64,000 nucleotides of DNA from an uncultured Chloroflexia bacterium (lineage in GTDB: Bacteria; Chloroflexota; Limnocylindria; Limnocylindrales; CSP1-4). A program made the position numbers and the translations under genes. The notes below the pieces were generated by a model. The model had not been told where the DNA came from. It did not search any database and saw only the letters and a list, made by a program, of their open reading frames with translations. Where the stretch lies: NCBI GenBank assembly GCA_963734535.1, contig CAVTHS010000007.1:96001-160000 (forward strand), read 5' to 3'. The number at the start of each line of letters is the position of its first letter. Positions within the stretch are counted from its first letter, which is position 1. Positions 52,050 through 61,559 of this stretch are shown here, piece by piece.

Positions 52050-53417
52050 GTGGGGCGTGTGACCGCCGGGGCAGGCCCTGGATCAGCAGGCGGAGAAGCG
52101 TTCTCCGGTCGGGTCCTCGTCCTCTTCCTGACCCAGGTTCTTACCGCGACGCGCGTCGACACAGTCGTGCTCGCGTTCGCCGTCCTGAGCTTGGCCTCGC
52201 TCGTCGGTTGCTCACCCCTGCTCCCGACGGATCACGGCTCGGCACGGCCCGTCGCCCAGGCCCTGTTCGATGCGTCGACCCCGTCCGTGGCCACCTTCCC
52301 GGCCCCGACGCCGGTCACCACGCCGATCCCGTCCGTGGCCACCTTTCCGGCCCCGACGCCCACCCCACCAGCCATCGCCTCGCCGACGCCCACGCGCACG
52401 GCGCAACCATCGGCATCGCTCGTGACGAAGCCGAGATCCACGGCGTCGCCCCGGCCGGCCCCGGCGCCGTCGCCCCGGCCGGCCCCGGCGCCGACGCTGA
52501 CAATCCTCTCCATGCCTACCCAGCCGCCGACTCGCACTCCCGCGCCGACTCCCACCCCGACCGCGTTCTCCGGGACGGTCTACGTGTCGTCGATCCCGGC
52601 CCTGAAGAGCGCGCTCGCCGACAACTCGGTCGACGAGATCGTGGTTGCCAACGGGACGTATCACGTTAGCCCTTCGAATGAGTTCAGATCGGACTCGCTC
52701 TGGATCGGCAGCTCGGCCAGCGGCGGGATGCCCTTCGCCGAGCGGACCCGGCCGGTCACGGTGCGGGCCGCGACCATCGGTGGCGTCACGTTCGATGGCG
52801 GCGGCGGCAGCGCCTACGGCGGGCTCAGCTTCGAGGCTGGCGCCCACGACCAGACGTGGGACGGGTTCAAGTTCGCGAACATGGCGGCTGCCTCCACCGG
52901 GATCGTCGAGTTCGGCTCCTACACGTCGCGAGCGGCTCCCTACAACATCACGCTCCGCCACATCACGATCTTCAGCACGTGCACGGGACGGTCCACGACC
53001 GCCAACGGGAACACCCTGGACCACGCGTTCTACATGGGCCAGGCACTCTCCCCAGGCCCCCACGACCTGCTCTTCGAGGACATCACGGTGGATGGTCGGG
53101 GGGGGCTCGCCACCGCGTTCCACTTCTTTCATAGCAGCGCGGGGGCACCCAACGCGTCGAACGTGACTGTGCGGCGGCTTCACGTCACCGGGACCCAGAA
53201 CGCGATCATGCTGTGGGATTCCACCCTCCACGACGTCACCTTCGACTCGGTGGACATCACGGCCGCCCTGAGCTACGCCATCCGCTACGAGGCGGTCGGC
53301 TCGACGAGGATGATCCTCTCGAACATCACGTCGACGGCATCAGGCCGCGAGGGGTTCTACAGCAGCGAAGGCCCGGACCCGCCGGGCCTCACCATCTCGA
53401 ACGGCAGTCTCCACTGA
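52050..53417 (+). CDS. Putative lipoprotein with a Pro/Thr-rich stalk and a right-handed beta-helix-like domain
   Basis: Lipobox-like LVGC, PSVATFPAPTP x2 and SPRPAPAP x2, then beta-strand repeats (NITLRHITI, DLLFEDITV, NVTVRRLHV). Start is uncertain (52050-52167). Confidence 0.75.
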   Translation: MGRVTAGAGPGSAGGEAFSGRVLVLFLTQVLTATRVDTVVLAFAVLSLASLVGCSPLLPTDHGSARPVAQALFDASTPSVATFPAPTPVTTPIPSVATFPAPTPTPPAIASPTPTRTAQPSASLVTKPRSTASPRPAPAPSPRPAPAPTLTILSMPTQPPTRTPAPTPTPTAFSGTVYVSSIPALKSALADNSVDEIVVANGTYHVSPSNEFRSDSLWIGSSASGGMPFAERTRPVTVRAATIGGVTFDGGGGSAYGGLSFEAGAHDQTWDGFKFANMAAASTGIVEFGSYTSRAAPYNITLRHITIFSTCTGRSTTANGNTLDHAFYMGQALSPGPHDLLFEDITVDGRGGLATAFHFFHSSAGAPNASNVTVRRLHVTGTQNAIMLWDSTLHDVTFDSVDITAALSYAIRYEAVGSTRMILSNITSTASGREGFYSSEGPDPPGLTISNGSLH

Positions 53418-58128: not shown

Positions 58129-59979
58129 CTACCAGGAATTGCCCCCGCCATCGGTCAACGCCAGGTCGGTCCAGTAGCCACGGCCGGGCGTCGTGGTGCC
58201 GGAGTTCACCGCGTGGACGTTCTTGACGGTACCGGCCGCCGTCTCTACGGCGTCAAATGTCACGTTGCAGCCGTTGATGGTCCAGCCATCGATGTCGACG
58301 GCCGTCGCGTCGGCATCGATGTAGCCGGCCCGGTTGCAGCCGCTTGCGTTCCACCCGTGGAGCTGGAGACCGTCAACGGATGGGCTGTGGAAGGTCTGGA
58401 CAGCGTTGACGAGATGGGTGAGCTGCAGGTCCCAGCCGTTCGCCACGATATCCGAGGATCGATGCGTGTCATCAGAGCTCACGTACAGCGCGTGGCTCGT
58501 GCTGCCGCCGGCAGCGCCCGTGATATTGCGGACGATCAGGCCGTTGACCGCGACATGGTGCACCCAGCCCGTATAGACGAGACCCGTCGCCCCAAGGGTG
58601 TACCCGGTCGCTGTGAAACTGCCACCGGTGCCGGCCGCGTCGAATGTGATCGCGGCTGTCGCGAAGGTCGGGTAGCCCGGGAGGCCGACGTTGGCACCGA
58701 GGTAGAGGAGGCCCTTCCCGCTACTGTCGCCTTGGAACACCACCGCGGCACCCGGCGCAGGACGGATCAGGAGCGGGCGCGCCGTACGGTCGAGCCGGAC
58801 ATACAGATGCCAGCCCGAGTGTGTACCAGGGGCCATCTCGATGACATCGACAGACATGTCCGCCATCAGTGCTAGGAACTGCGTCGCGGTCCCGGACGCC
58901 GGGAACGTCACGACAGACAAGCCTGGAACCGGGGCAGGCGTGGTCGGCGTCGGCGTGGGCGCCGTGGTCTGCGTCGGCGTGGGCGCCGTGGTTGGCGTCG
59001 GCGTGGGCGCCGTGGTTGGCGTCGGCGTGGGCGCCGTGGTCGGCGTGGGCGCCGTGGTTGGCGTCGGCGTGGGCGCCGTGGTCGGCGTGGCGACCGGCGT
59101 GGCGACCGGCGTGGCGGCCGGCGTGGCGACCGGCGTGGCGACCGGCGTGGCGACCGGCGTGGCGACCGGCGTGGCGGCCGGCGTGGCGGCCGGCGTGGCG
59201 ACCGGCGTGGCGGCCGGCGTGGCGACCGGCGTGGCGACCGGCGTGGCGGCCGGCGTGGCGGCCGGCGTCGGCGCACTGCTCAGGCTGACGACGTCAAAGA
59301 GCGTGTAGGTCGGATCGGTCGCCCAGTTGTCGTCATGGTTGGTCAGCGTGAGGGTGACGGCGTGGCCGGCGGACCGGGCAAGGTTCGCGCTTGCCTGTGC
59401 CCACGTGCCCGTGTTCGTGCAGGTGCGGGGGAGCACGGTCGTTGTGGACCTGGTGACGGTGTCACGCACGGTCGCCGTCGCCCAGTCGTAGGCAACGGTG
59501 TCGGGGCAGGCGATGGAGTACCAGAAGCTGAGCGTGCCGCCCGAGGCGGGGACGGTGAAGGTCTGGCTGATCGAGCTATCGCCGTTCGTGACGGCGGTTG
59601 AGCCGCCCCGCCCTGCGCTGAGGCCTGCCTGGACGGGACTCGCCGTGATCGCGGTGGTCCCCGTGCGACTCCAGCCCCTGAAGTCGCCGGTTTCGAAGCT
59701 GCCATTCACGAGACCACCCCCGGGCGTGGGTGTCGCATTTGGCGTCGGCGCGGGTCGTCGGTAGGAGAGTAGCTCGCCAACGGCGCCGTTCGATCCGGCG
59801 ATGCGTCCGTTGACGGAATTATTCGAGGCATTGGTCGCGGCGAACGGAACCAGGAGGGCGCTGATACCGAGGATCATGACGCCGGTCGACAGCCAGTCCC
59901 GAATCCGGCGACGGCGCCGTGGCGCGGGTGACGGCGTAGGCGCTCGCTCGTCGACCCAGCGTGTTCCATCCCAAAACAT
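58129..59979 (-). CDS. Secreted/surface protein: FWDG..W motif, TM/signal, CBM-like beta-sandwich, long Pro/Thr stalk, beta-helix-like domain
   Basis: 616 aa ORF; LVNGSFETGDFRGW, TLSFWY, (A/V)ATP repeats; GGAG RBS 7 nt before the ATG. Confidence 0.8.
   Translation of the reverse strand: MFWDGTRWVDERAPTPSPAPRRRRRIRDWLSTGVMILGISALLVPFAATNASNNSVNGRIAGSNGAVGELLSYRRPAPTPNATPTPGGGLVNGSFETGDFRGWSRTGTTAITASPVQAGLSAGRGGSTAVTNGDSSISQTFTVPASGGTLSFWYSIACPDTVAYDWATATVRDTVTRSTTTVLPRTCTNTGTWAQASANLARSAGHAVTLTLTNHDDNWATDPTYTLFDVVSLSSAPTPAATPAATPVATPVATPAATPVATPAATPAATPVATPVATPVATPVATPAATPVATPVATPTTAPTPTPTTAPTPTTAPTPTPTTAPTPTPTTAPTPTQTTAPTPTPTTPAPVPGLSVVTFPASGTATQFLALMADMSVDVIEMAPGTHSGWHLYVRLDRTARPLLIRPAPGAAVVFQGDSSGKGLLYLGANVGLPGYPTFATAAITFDAAGTGGSFTATGYTLGATGLVYTGWVHHVAVNGLIVRNITGAAGGSTSHALYVSSDDTHRSSDIVANGWDLQLTHLVNAVQTFHSPSVDGLQLHGWNASGCNRAGYIDADATAVDIDGWTINGCNVTFDAVETAAGTVKNVHAVNSGTTTPGRGYWTDLALTDGGGNSW
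58939..59270 (-). repeat. Coding tandem repeats (12 bp xATP units and 18-24 bp PTTAPT units)
   Basis: About 15 copies of GGCG(A/G)CCGGCGT plus several GGCGTGGGCGCCGTGGT-based units. Confidence 0.92.
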
Positions 59980-59987
59980 AGAGCGGC

Positions 59988-60067
59988 TCCATTCGGCAAC
60001 CCGGCTGACTCTTGGAGTCCCGTGGCTTTGCGGCCCCGCCTCGCGACGGGTGTGCTATTTCGTGGGC
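59988..60067 (-). ncRNA. c-di-GMP-I (GEMM-I) family riboswitch, A20 variant (candidate 3',3'-cGAMP sensor)
   Basis: Minus strand reads CCCACGAAAU-A-GC-ACA-CCCGUC-GCGA-GGCGGG-GCC-GC-AAAGCCACGG-GACUC-CAA-GAGUC-AGCCGGGUUGCCGAAUGG: GNRA-capped P2, GCAAAG junction, P3, GCCGA end. Confidence 0.87.
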
Positions 60068-60257
60068 CGGCCGGATCAGTGCAGCCAGCCACGCGTCCCG
60101 TGGTTGGACGTATGTCAGGAGAGTAGGAGTCGACGATCCGACGGGCTATCGGCAATTGGTACCGCCCGGGCGGCGAAGGGGCTAGTTGTAGCAAGGCCGG
60201 GGCTGTCGCGGGATATCCCCGCTTGTTCGCGGGATCTCCCGCCGGGCGGCGATCGCC

Positions 60258-61559
60258 CTACCCCTGGCCGGTGCTCGCGAAGTTCCGCAGGTAGGTCACG
60301 TTGTCCCAGCAGTTGACGGCCATGCCATCCGCCCAGGTCCGCAGCGTACGCCGAAGGTCCTGGCCCGCCCGCAGGTGGTCCAGCAGCGACTTCGTGATGT
60401 CCTCGCTGCTGCTTGCCAGGGCGAAGGCGTCGAACTCGGTCGTCGGCAGGCCGGCGGCCAGCATCAGCGATCCCATCTTGCCCTGCTTGGCGCTCAGGGC
60501 GACGACGGGCGCGCCGCCCCGCAGGGCGAAGATGGCCGTGTGCCACCGGCCGCCGATGTACGCGTCGGCGTTCCCGAGGAGGTCGACTCCCTGCTGGACC
60601 GGGGTGGTGGGCGCGACCAAGGGGAGATCGAGCTCTCGTGCCAGCGGCCGAAAGACCTCGAGCTCCTGCAAGCCGGAGAGCGTGAGGACGATCTGCCCGT
60701 CGTACACCGACCGCAGCTTCCGCACGAGCGCCGCGTAGTCCCTGGCGATCGCCGTGGGGCGCCAGGCCGTGCTGTGGAGCGACGATCCGCCGAGGCACAG
60801 GTATGGCTCCGAAGGGTCGAACGTCGCCGTGTCGGGCCACACGTCGAAGTAGGTCGGCCGTCGCGCGATGGCAGCCCACGTCTCCCGGGGCGCCGGCTCG
60901 AACCAGAAGGCGGTGTCGGCAGCGAAGCGTCCGTTGCAGAGCGTGGCACATTGTTCCGCCGACACGGGGTCACGAAAGACCACGTCATCGAAGAGCGGGT
61001 AGACGTTCTCGGCCATCCGGCGGAGCTCCGGATGGGCGAAGTCGGCGCTGTGGTTGACCATGATCACCGGCGTGCCGAGACTGCGCTTCGCCAGGTATGC
61101 CAGGAACAGGTCCGTCCTGGGGATGATCCCGTTGCCGACCATGGCCCCGTCGCCGTGGATGACCGCCACGTCGGCAGCCCGGATCGCGCCCACCAGGGAG
61201 GGCCAGGTTCCCGTCCTGGCCTCCAGCACGGCCTTGGCCGCGCCAGGGAAACCCTCCCAGCGCTCCGGTATCACGCGGTTGGCCGCCGTGAGATCGACTC
61301 CCTTGAACATCCTGCGCCTCGCGGCGAGGATGAAGGGCGGTATCAGGGCTCTCACAGCTTCCCGGACTCTGTTTCTCGGGGGATCCTCGAGGTGGGCGAA
61401 ATGCCCACCGAAGGAAGACAGGGCGAGGTCGTCCTCCGAGACACTTCGGACGATCCGGCCGCCTGATGCCGCGACCATCGACTTGAGGGAGATCGCCGCG
61501 GCCCTATCTCCCCAGTTCGCGTTCGTGGTCGAGTCGTTGATGAAGAGGACTTTCAACAA
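60258..61559 (-). CDS. Polysaccharide pyruvyl transferase family protein
   Basis: NWGDRA, FRDPVS, AADTAF, IGGRWHTAIFAL..GAP. Confidence 0.85.
   Translation of the reverse strand: MLKVLFINDSTTNANWGDRAAAISLKSMVAASGGRIVRSVSEDDLALSSFGGHFAHLEDPPRNRVREAVRALIPPFILAARRRMFKGVDLTAANRVIPERWEGFPGAAKAVLEARTGTWPSLVGAIRAADVAVIHGDGAMVGNGIIPRTDLFLAYLAKRSLGTPVIMVNHSADFAHPELRRMAENVYPLFDDVVFRDPVSAEQCATLCNGRFAADTAFWFEPAPRETWAAIARRPTYFDVWPDTATFDPSEPYLCLGGSSLHSTAWRPTAIARDYAALVRKLRSVYDGQIVLTLSGLQELEVFRPLARELDLPLVAPTTPVQQGVDLLGNADAYIGGRWHTAIFALRGGAPVVALSAKQGKMGSLMLAAGLPTTEFDAFALASSSEDITKSLLDHLRAGQDLRRTLRTWADGMAVNCWDNVTYLRNFASTGQG

Follow-up and report, generated by a model that had tools for sequence, protein, structure and literature searches.

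The minus strand of a 64-kb stretch of Chloroflexota DNA (hereafter the window) carries a GEMM-I (c-di-GMP-I) riboswitch with an A at the ligand-reading position equivalent to G20. The reading that we favor, at a probability of roughly 0.55, is that it is a translational OFF switch whose bispecific A20 pocket mainly reads c-di-GMP throughout the family. Ligand bound at the three-way junction by A20, A47, and C92 would stabilize P1, the lower part of which would then bury the GGAG Shine-Dalgarno (SD) sequence of a gene for a secreted carbohydrate-binding/β-helix protein in an exopolysaccharide locus. We propose c-di-GMP as the everyday input across the family, bound through a protonated A20 with an affinity below that of G20, so that the substitution would probably tune the threshold of the switch rather than change its signal.

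When the window was searched with cmscan, RF01051 was the sole Rfam match, with a score of 60 bits (E 3.2e-9; gathering score, 35 bits) over model positions 1–87, and it placed the aptamer at 59992 to 60066. This is the one copy in the genome, the assembly of which is 89.9% complete and 7.1% contaminated. The RF01051 alignment and a pair count on 47 homologues located P2 at 60055–60030 and P3 at 60027–59998, and the P1-P2-P3 junction, the GNRA tetraloop, the C44-G83 tertiary pair (kept in all 47 homologues), A47, and C92 were all present. A60056, which follows U19, aligns with the model G just 5′ of the P2-opening GC. The A47 equivalent is at 60029 and the C92 equivalent at 59996; the former stacks between the ligand bases (PMC9049102), and the latter forms a pair with the ligand's G-beta base (PMC6140456). 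Positions 24 and 43, as counted from G20 and A47, are A in the Rfam consensus but C in this aptamer (60052 and 60033), and mark a subtype. The J1/2 linker joining the P1 G to position 20 is 4 nt long, as it is in 78 of 87 cassettes bearing the leader peptide described below. With a pocket of A-A-C and RF01051 itself as its best match in the clan, the aptamer belongs to neither of the Rfam variants c-di-GMP-I-GGC and -UAU. Its folding energy by itself was not above chance (z 0.76), and the aptamer call therefore rests on the covariance model and on covariation. An earlier note on this DNA had described a complete GEMM-I fold with A20 and a retained C92, as well as a GCGA tetraloop and a GACUC/GAGUC end of P3, all of which were found. 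Its view of the tetraloop and short P3 as marks of GEMM-Ib aptamers was rejected, since G20 siblings share both. A search of sequencing runs for this organism yielded no run containing more than 15% of its words, and the contigs recovered came from relatives; as the same A20/C24 core occurred in 68 matches among 401 family genomes, this one included, a lone sequencing error is excluded.

The aptamer sits in the 5′ leader, with the SD inside P1. The 5′, anti-SD strand of P1 lies at 60061–60069 and the 3′ strand at 59984–59995, the latter including GGAG (59990–59987) 7 nt ahead of the ATG at 59979, as the earlier note had it. Among the 47 homologues, four of the seven P1 pairs over the SD showed two-sided changes; pair 14-86, for example, was UA in 19 and AU in 14. 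The covariation score of the whole structure was reached by none of 500 shuffles, in a count in which 93% of cells were paired and the pattern-fixed core columns carry no weight. At least three SD bases were paired in 74 of 85 cognate P1 duplexes; cognate duplexes were better than foreign ones in 49 of 85 comparisons (p 0.024), a weak test, and P1 was not stronger in A20 copies when duplexes were compared (p 0.27). A P1 that extends across the SD with compensatory changes supports the translational OFF design which had been proposed for this element, and we conclude that the riboswitch probably shuts off the surface-protein gene. In this copy the ligand-free minimum-energy fold (−36.8 kcal/mol, relative to −35.4 for the bound-like fold) also sequesters the SD within a small hairpin, which leaves the ON state without a clean prediction. 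The prediction of SD-hiding folds without ligand fits an alternative that we consider unlikely, namely that selection is relaxed, the cassette being copied as a unit while positions 20 and 92 drift, and that the element gives a weak response or works mainly as a fixed translational damper.

The gene placed under control by the favored OFF switch (58129–59979, minus strand) encodes 616 amino acids, and the protein as a whole has no Pfam match. It comprises an MFWDG leader, a basic and hydrophobic segment that resembles an export signal or anchor (assigned by eye from the sequence), a CBM4/9-like domain, a Pro/Thr/Ala linker, and a β-helix C-terminal domain. The two domain assignments follow ESM Atlas feature leads of 0.96 for CBM_4_9 (21% of cluster members) and 0.95 for β-helix; a PDB sequence search with the protein returned low-complexity repeat matches only. 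The leader (59920–59979) is conserved at the protein level with synonymous variation, and in profile comparison it resembles the C-terminal half of DUF2510 below the cut-off; all five leaders compared matched positions 16–32/34 of the 35 in that profile, with E values from 1e-4 to 0.05. A homology of the 616-aa protein to the ORF at 52050–53417 was considered and found unsupported by BLASTP (E 0.41). Upstream and co-oriented is a polysaccharide pyruvyl transferase gene (60258–61559; PF04230, E 7e-21), a possible source of read-through transcript; a scan of 59900–60400 matched neither a sigma-70 promoter, whichever strand was read, nor a terminator on the minus strand. Of 41 cassette neighbors, 23 were polysaccharide-locus genes, 10 had no match, and 8 were other genes. 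Together with the CBM4/9-like and β-helix leads, these neighbors back the earlier assignment of the target as a polysaccharide-locus surface protein, and we infer a glycan-processing role for it. Polysaccharide-locus genes are a usual class of c-di-GMP targets.

The C24/Y43 subtype precedes polysaccharide-locus genes for secreted proteins that begin with the MFWDG leader. Every C24 match in the 401 family genomes (146 of 146) had C or U at position 43, and the pattern was absent from all 285 genomes of the phylum outside the family. Position 20 in this subtype was G in 70 matches, A in 68, C in 8, and U in none; A was the majority base among the leader-bearing cassettes (55 of 87), which come from genomes of 72% GC. 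A20, G20, and C20 interchange within one cassette type, and five genomes hold G20 and A20 paralogues together. On a tree of the 87 cassettes position 20 changed about 23 times, at least 6 of these changes being forced by starred branches, in comparison with 27.9 changes when the bases were shuffled. This near saturation, along with several copies having bases other than C at position 92, would be consistent with relaxed selection. Against drift, U20 was never seen and C20 was rare despite the high GC content, A20 occurred only with U19 or G19 (55 of 55 leader-bearing cassettes), C92 was retained in 126 of the 134 copies read, and C44-G83 was invariant. The prevalence of A20 in such GC-rich genomes and its tie to U19 or G19 show selection, though not for which ligand. 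Across the family the bases at positions 20 and 92 form the pockets G/C, A/C, C/C, G/U, and A/U. The A/U pocket matches an engineered double mutant that binds c-di-AMP.

Comparison with known A20 aptamers led us to regard the pocket as most likely bispecific. The Vibrio cholerae Vc2 G20A mutant (structures 3MUM and 4YB1, as cited in PMC6140456) is reported to be bispecific, with affinities of 53 nM for c-di-GMP and 120 nM for cGAMP, and protonated A20 still binds c-di-GMP (PMC6140456). It shares with the present aptamer an A20/A47/C92 pocket set on a G-C P2-opening pair; the present aptamer differs in being natural, in having C rather than A at positions 24 and 43, in a J1/2 one base shorter, and in preceding a polysaccharide-locus surface-protein gene. 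Cbe 1-2 of Clostridium beijerinckii, like ours a natural A20 GEMM-I aptamer outside the Deltaproteobacteria (a likeness by description, not sequence), binds c-di-GMP at 30 nM and cGAMP at 463 nM (PMC6140456); its binding has been measured, whereas ours is known from sequence and stands in a genome with a Hypr-signature cyclase. The Geobacter GEMM-Ib aptamers (Gs1761, Gm0970, pilM) also have A20 after U, a retained C92, and control over surface functions. Gs1761 (numbered with G8 and J1/2 A9–A14), however, has a C-G P2 opening and a 5-nt linker (PMC6274999), in contrast to G-C and 4 nt here, and the pilM riboswitch turns transcription ON (PMC9262584) whereas a translational OFF switch is predicted here. 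G. sulfurreducens has 17 GEMM-I aptamers, 12 of them shown to bind cGAMP (PMC8835794); our genome has one, and across its relatives the aptamer is not tied to the cyclase. A20 with C92, and synthase candidates in the genome (a Hypr-signature protein and a SMODS protein), are shared with GEMM-Ib; the Gs1761-like lower P2 and linker and the co-distribution with a synthase among relatives are not.

As the earlier note had reported, there is no cyclase in the window; indeed, no GGDEF match was found anywhere on its contig. The Hypr-type candidate that it had predicted is present elsewhere in the genome, as an HTH-(GAF)4-GGDEF protein on contig C12 with a near-copy on C11, alongside 13 Asp-type GGDEF domains. 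The C12 protein has Thr at the site of GacA Ser348, GGDEF at an unchanged distance of 26 residues, and Ala where the cross-dimer residue Tyr304 would stand; its catalytic residues (DxD, K, N, E) and its RxxD I-site are intact. It resembles GacA (Geobacter, PDB 6D9M) and GacB (Myxococcus, GAF-GGDEF) in its small hydroxyl residue at 348, GGDEF, non-Arg304, I-site, and GAF input; it differs from them in that the hydroxyl residue is Thr instead of Ser, that there are four GAF domains, and that an HTH like those of MerR/excisionase proteins stands at the N terminus. Enzymes favoring cGAMP have Ser or Thr348 with GGDE[F/Y] and Tyr, Ser, Ala, or Gln rather than Arg at 304 (PMC6456294), and the sequence of the C12 protein would place it among them. 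Among the 34 relatives in the database that stand closest, 33 had Thr with Ala304 (the remaining one was unread), and the Thr proteins formed a single clade; nested as it is among Asp-type Limnocylindrales orthologues, the C12 protein probably had an independent origin. These observations favor an alternative to which we give tentative weight, about half that of the favored reading or less, in which the switch in this subclade is driven at least partly by 3′,3′-cGAMP from the C12 protein, an older bispecific A20 aptamer having been a ready receptor once the cyclase changed from Asp to Thr. A caution is that some Ser/Thr enzymes, those with Arg304, yield more c-di-GMP (PMC6456294). The single aptamer per genome, set against 17 in G. 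sulfurreducens, also counts against this alternative, as do the two HD-GYP domains of our genome, both of which carry the canonical RxxK/R. RxxQ/N, the criterion for the cGAMP-specific HD-GYP GAP (10.1101/600031), was found in none of 19 domains from six genomes (2 from this genome and 17 from five relatives).

Within the genus, 4 of the 16 Thr-type genomes had A20, as did 13 of the 22 Asp-type genomes; with the count limited to well-assembled genomes, the figures were 4 of 8 and 13 of 18, respectively. This distribution opposes a link between the Thr enzyme and A20. In its favor, the eight Thr-type genomes with 30 or fewer contigs included four with A20, one with C20, and none with a G20 copy of the subtype. 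One Ser-type and one Asn-type genome (G101 and G085) bore G20 subtype copies, and none of the other Ser- or Asn-type genomes matched the A20 pattern. In four A20 genomes that were 94–95% complete, none of 59 GGDEF matches had Ser, Thr, or Asn at the specificity site. Among 151 family genomes, no co-occurrence with A20 was found for Ser/Thr GGDEF (6 genomes), non-Asp GGDEF (15 genomes), or SMODS (7 genomes). By a pattern for codons not starting with G, which leaves Ala, Gly, Val, and Glu outside it, non-Asp GGDEF was present in 2 of 28 A20 genomes versus 13 of 123 others (p 0.74, kin not being independent). The SMODS protein of our genome, a CBASS-like CD-NTase, is encoded at C2:875–1978, on an island of lower GC content that also holds an HTH gene, a metallopeptidase-like gene, and more small genes, and could be imagined to make the ligand and so link phage defense to the cell surface; as this genome alone of the seven with SMODS has an A20 match, we regard such a link as highly improbable.

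The earlier note had taken A20 to imply cGAMP signaling in a lineage outside the Deltaproteobacteria. The lineage, Chloroflexota, stands; the implication is not supported, as A20 does not track with a cyclase, A20, G20, and C20 replace one another, and near-complete A20 relatives lack a recognizable Hypr-signature cyclase. It is further unsupported because P2 opens with G-C, the pair that bispecific Vc2 G20A also has, rather than with the C-G of Gs1761, because no cGAMP-type HD-GYP was seen in the domains read, and because natural non-Deltaproteobacterial A20 aptamers can prefer c-di-GMP, as Cbe 1-2 does. A20 copies throughout the family might still read cGAMP from a synthase lacking the recognized signature: A20 has a wide distribution (a non-G20 pattern in 22 of 49 genera), the same genomes have canonical G20 aptamers ahead of other genes, and a cGAMP synthase with a GGDDF motif has been reported (PMC8835794). 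Close cassettes alternate between G20 and A20, however, no candidate enzyme was found, and no RxxQ/N HD-GYP was seen among the 19 domains read; we rate this as slightly less probable than relaxed selection. Since most relatives with the same switch lack a candidate cGAMP maker, c-di-GMP is the likelier everyday signal, as in the favored reading; given the C12 protein, cGAMP may also be present in this organism, and the A20 pocket would read it.

A literature search found no paper on Limnocylindria riboswitches and nothing relevant on Hypr GGDEF proteins in Chloroflexi, the 2015–2016 PNAS taxon lists lying outside the search. A20 is a widely used sequence mark of cGAMP riboswitches, and this family tests its reliability, with about 140 near-identical aptamers that vary mainly at the ligand-reading bases in hosts whose cyclase state is readable. 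It is conceivable, though we lean against it, that a Limnocylindrales subclade was a separate origin of non-defense 3′,3′-cGAMP signaling, in which an HTH-GAF4-GGDEF c-di-GMP cyclase, by then without Arg304, acquired Thr in place of Asp348, while a pre-existing A20 cassette became the reader that shuts off a glycan-acting surface protein. If so, the cassette pockets would be a natural GEMM-I specificity series. Should cGAMP be the product of the Thr enzyme, Hypr signaling would extend to Chloroflexota, with an apparently independent origin, and would have followed the proposed mutational path in which loss of Arg304 precedes the change at Asp348 (PMC6456294). If the enzyme makes none, the set would present A20 as a variant that tunes the affinity of a c-di-GMP switch.

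The sole Rfam match in the 64-kb window was RF01051 (GEMM-I), at 60066-59992 on the minus strand, with 60 bits (gathering score 35) and an E value of 3.2e-9. This covariance-model match bore out the earlier note, which had described a GEMM-I aptamer with A at G20 and C92 kept; A60056 aligned at the G20 position, and A47 (60029) and C92 (59996) were retained (numbering and roles from the accessible text of PMC6140456 and PMC5888326). The Shine-Dalgarno sequence (SD) GGAG was confirmed at 59990-59987, on the same strand and 7 nt before ATG 59979 of a 616-aa ORF. We concluded that the element is a real riboswitch; it was the only GEMM-I copy in the genome, G000. The nearest named relatives of a protein of this genome were Chloroflexota, many titled Candidatus Limnocylindrales.

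RF01051 gave 198 matches in 107 of the 151 family genomes. The best 30 loci by score were all canonical G20/A24/A43, a skew to the consensus that arose because they were chosen by score; the window aptamer represents a second subtype, marked by C24 together with C or U at 43 (C24/Y43). Positions 19, 24, 43, 44 and 83 are our own assignments, counted from G20, A47 and C92. Two patterns run over 401 genomes yielded 146 C24 matches (70 G20, 68 A20, 8 C20) and 9 more A20 matches of A24 type; U20 was absent and C20 rare although the genomes are 72% GC, and none of 285 genomes from the phylum but outside the family had the C24/Y43 pattern. The family counts include the unpublished genome G082, which accounts for a single G20 match (of 70) and a single SMODS match (of seven); the conclusions are independent of it. 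The fetched C24 set comprised 146 distinct copies, including some from genus genomes outside the 401, and in 87 of these (A20 55, G20 27, C20 5) a protein with an MFWDG-type leader lay directly behind the aptamer. The leader (window 59920-59979 and the 87 cassette loci) was conserved at the peptide level and, in five of five tried, matched the second half of the DUF2510 profile below cut-off. The domains behind it were variable: among 37 partial proteins, seven matched Beta_helix, seven FN3-like families, and 16 nothing. A half-DUF2510 peptide (FWDGxxW), immediately 3' of the riboswitch, opens proteins whose passenger domains are unrelated. This leader seems to move as a single module with the riboswitch and the SD.

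The polysaccharide-locus target proposed earlier was upheld, both by the pyruvyl transferase and Wzy_C protein among the window neighbours of the controlled gene and by 41 upstream neighbours of cassettes, which we grouped as polysaccharide-locus (23), other (8) or no match (10). For the 616-aa protein, feature scores rather than alignments gave leads to two domains, one CBM4/9-like and the other a beta-helix. The same locus holds a second Pro/Thr-linker protein (52050-53417, plus strand), which has no riboswitch and a weak pectate-lyase-like match (E 0.00095); BLASTP detected no homology between the two proteins.

For covariation we aligned 47 of 50 candidate copies, three being dropped for length differences, in a selection that demanded the usual C92-C93 spacing. 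The P1 extension over the SD showed two-sided changes at four of its seven pairs, in agreement with the translational OFF design predicted earlier; pair 14-86, for example, was UA in 19 copies, AU in 14, UG in one and unpaired in 13. Pairing reached 93% in the aptamer structure versus 27-45% in slid controls, and the whole-structure covariation score was reached in none of 500 shuffles, which leave relatedness in. At least three SD bases were paired in 74 of 85 cognate P1 duplexes; only 49 of the 85 preferred their own P1 partner by strand, because the SD itself is conserved. In the window copy, P1 contributes about 8.7 kcal/mol of folding energy (-35.4 vs -26.7), and the ligand-free minimum (-36.8 kcal/mol) has both P2 and P1 broken and the SD within a small local hairpin. 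The scan around the aptamer revealed neither a minus-strand terminator nor a sigma-70 promoter match. An OFF state stabilized by ligand, with the SD buried in P1, is therefore well supported as a prediction, and the window riboswitch is probably a translational OFF switch.

The earlier note had read A20 as a sign of cGAMP signalling, with a Hypr-type cyclase elsewhere in the genome, and a candidate cyclase was indeed found. Among 19 GGDEF matches, the specificity site was Asp in 13 domains, one was degenerate, and one gene, on contig C12 (C12:27985-28449, equal to L013:1501-1965), had Thr. Its 985-aa product, HTH-(GAF)4-GGDEF, was aligned to GacA (6D9M) by way of an Acidobacterial Ser-type relative, and on that numbering has Thr348 (not Ser), GGDEF and Ala304, with catalytic residues and I-site intact. 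The accessible text of PMC6456294 ties a Ser/Thr348-type residue, the GGDEF motif and an Ala304-type residue to cGAMP production; with all three, the protein is therefore, by signature, the predicted Hypr cyclase candidate. Many Acidobacteriota GAF-linked GGDEF domains (among L075-L129) have Ser348 with GGDEF, and Ala304 in the two aligned. A frameshifted near-copy of the gene (L131) lies on C11; the whole 29-kb C12 is duplicated at C11:170812-206492 with 84-98% identity and several frameshifted GGDEF genes, which agrees with the 7.1% contamination stemming from a second strain or species.

Among relatives, A20 does not follow cyclase state, and the proposed step from A20 to cGAMP signalling was not supported. 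The cyclase orthologue, read in 39 of 42 genus genomes, was Thr in 16, Asp in 22 and Ser in one; A20 aptamers occurred in 4 of the 16 Thr-type and 13 of the 22 Asp-type genomes (4/8 and 13/18 in assemblies of at most 30 contigs), these surveys' absences being bounded by genome incompleteness. None of 59 GGDEF matches in four A20 genomes 94-95% complete (G069, G163, G005, G043) had Ser, Thr or Asn, and across the 151 family genomes a non-Asp GGDEF occurred in 2 of 28 with A20 vs 13 of 123 others. Position 20 required 23 changes (shuffled mean 27.9), at least six of them forced by starred branches, when mapped on a tree of the 87 cassettes that left out positions 19 and 20 and has many weak forks. 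Departures of the cyclase orthologue from Asp numbered at least five on a tree of 55 rows that omits the Ser of G181: one to Thr, one to Ser and three to Asn, always, in the rows read, on a background lacking Arg304. The Ser form is that of genus g46 and of G181; the Asn form occurs in g16 and g33, among others.

Other cyclic-dinucleotide genes were also present in G000. The search for CD-NTases found a SMODS gene (C2:875-1978) in a CBASS-like island at a contig end (C2:1-2902, L241), where, by our sequence reading, a metallopeptidase-like gene and an HTH gene diverge from it and a small enzyme-like and a TIR-like ORF accompany it; SMODS occurred in seven of 151 family genomes and coincided with A20 only in G000. 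Both HD-GYP domains were of the canonical RxxK/R type (as defined in the accessible text of 10.1101/600031), and none was of the cGAMP type. At C2:204702-208136 (L242), a DAC-domain gene is followed by a reading frame that we take to be CdaR-like, and c-di-AMP is therefore probably made in this organism.

Natural A20/A47/U92 pockets were found in four genomes of genus g6 (L349, L352, L353 and L355, position 71-145 or 469-543), with a G20/C92 sister paralogue; G005 carries both forms (sister, L297). A metagenome scan gave eight A20/U92 loci, four of the same clade, one other cassette copy and three of A24 type; L432, L434, L435, L438 and L439 were A20/A47/U92. These pockets have the same two base changes as the engineered Vc2 double mutant G20A/C92U, which binds c-di-AMP (accessible parts of PMC7288161 and PMC9049102). 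G20/U92 occurred as singletons (L165, L286), two of four such script calls being misalignments. The script resolved position 92 in 134 copies, of which 126 have C92; 12 further copies went unread.

A20 was paired exclusively with U19 or G19 (55 of 55 leader cassettes); A19 or C19 occurred in 10 of 27 G20 copies. Together with the absent U20, the rare C20 and the retained C92, this bias points to selection on the pocket. The switch is maintained and position 20 accepts both purines, which fits a c-di-GMP pocket. In the accessible text of PMC6140456, the affinities of Vc2 G20A are 53 nM for c-di-GMP and 120 nM for cGAMP, the wild type being picomolar; Cbe 1-2, an A20 aptamer from nature, favours c-di-GMP (30 nM, vs 463 nM for cGAMP). 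Changes in lower P2 influence selectivity (PMC9262584, in part), and the P2-opening pair is G-C in the window aptamer, in contrast to C15-G40 in Gs1761 (PMC6274999, in part). The ligand of the window riboswitch is most likely c-di-GMP. cGAMP may act as a second input within this subclade, and we consider it unlikely to be a real input in this organism.

A20 GEMM-I aptamers are already known, also outside Deltaproteobacteria. As far as the literature searched extends, with the key PNAS papers and their supplements outside it, the family-restricted C24/Y43 cassette with its labile pocket is new, as is a cyclase with a Hypr signature in Chloroflexota. With c-di-GMP as ligand, we propose that A20 may lift the threshold into a range usable by a translational switch, and that high c-di-GMP, favouring matrix building, would turn off a glycan-acting surface protein. 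Where a Thr cyclase and an A20 aptamer coexist, as in G000, a bispecific pocket would also sense any cGAMP produced.
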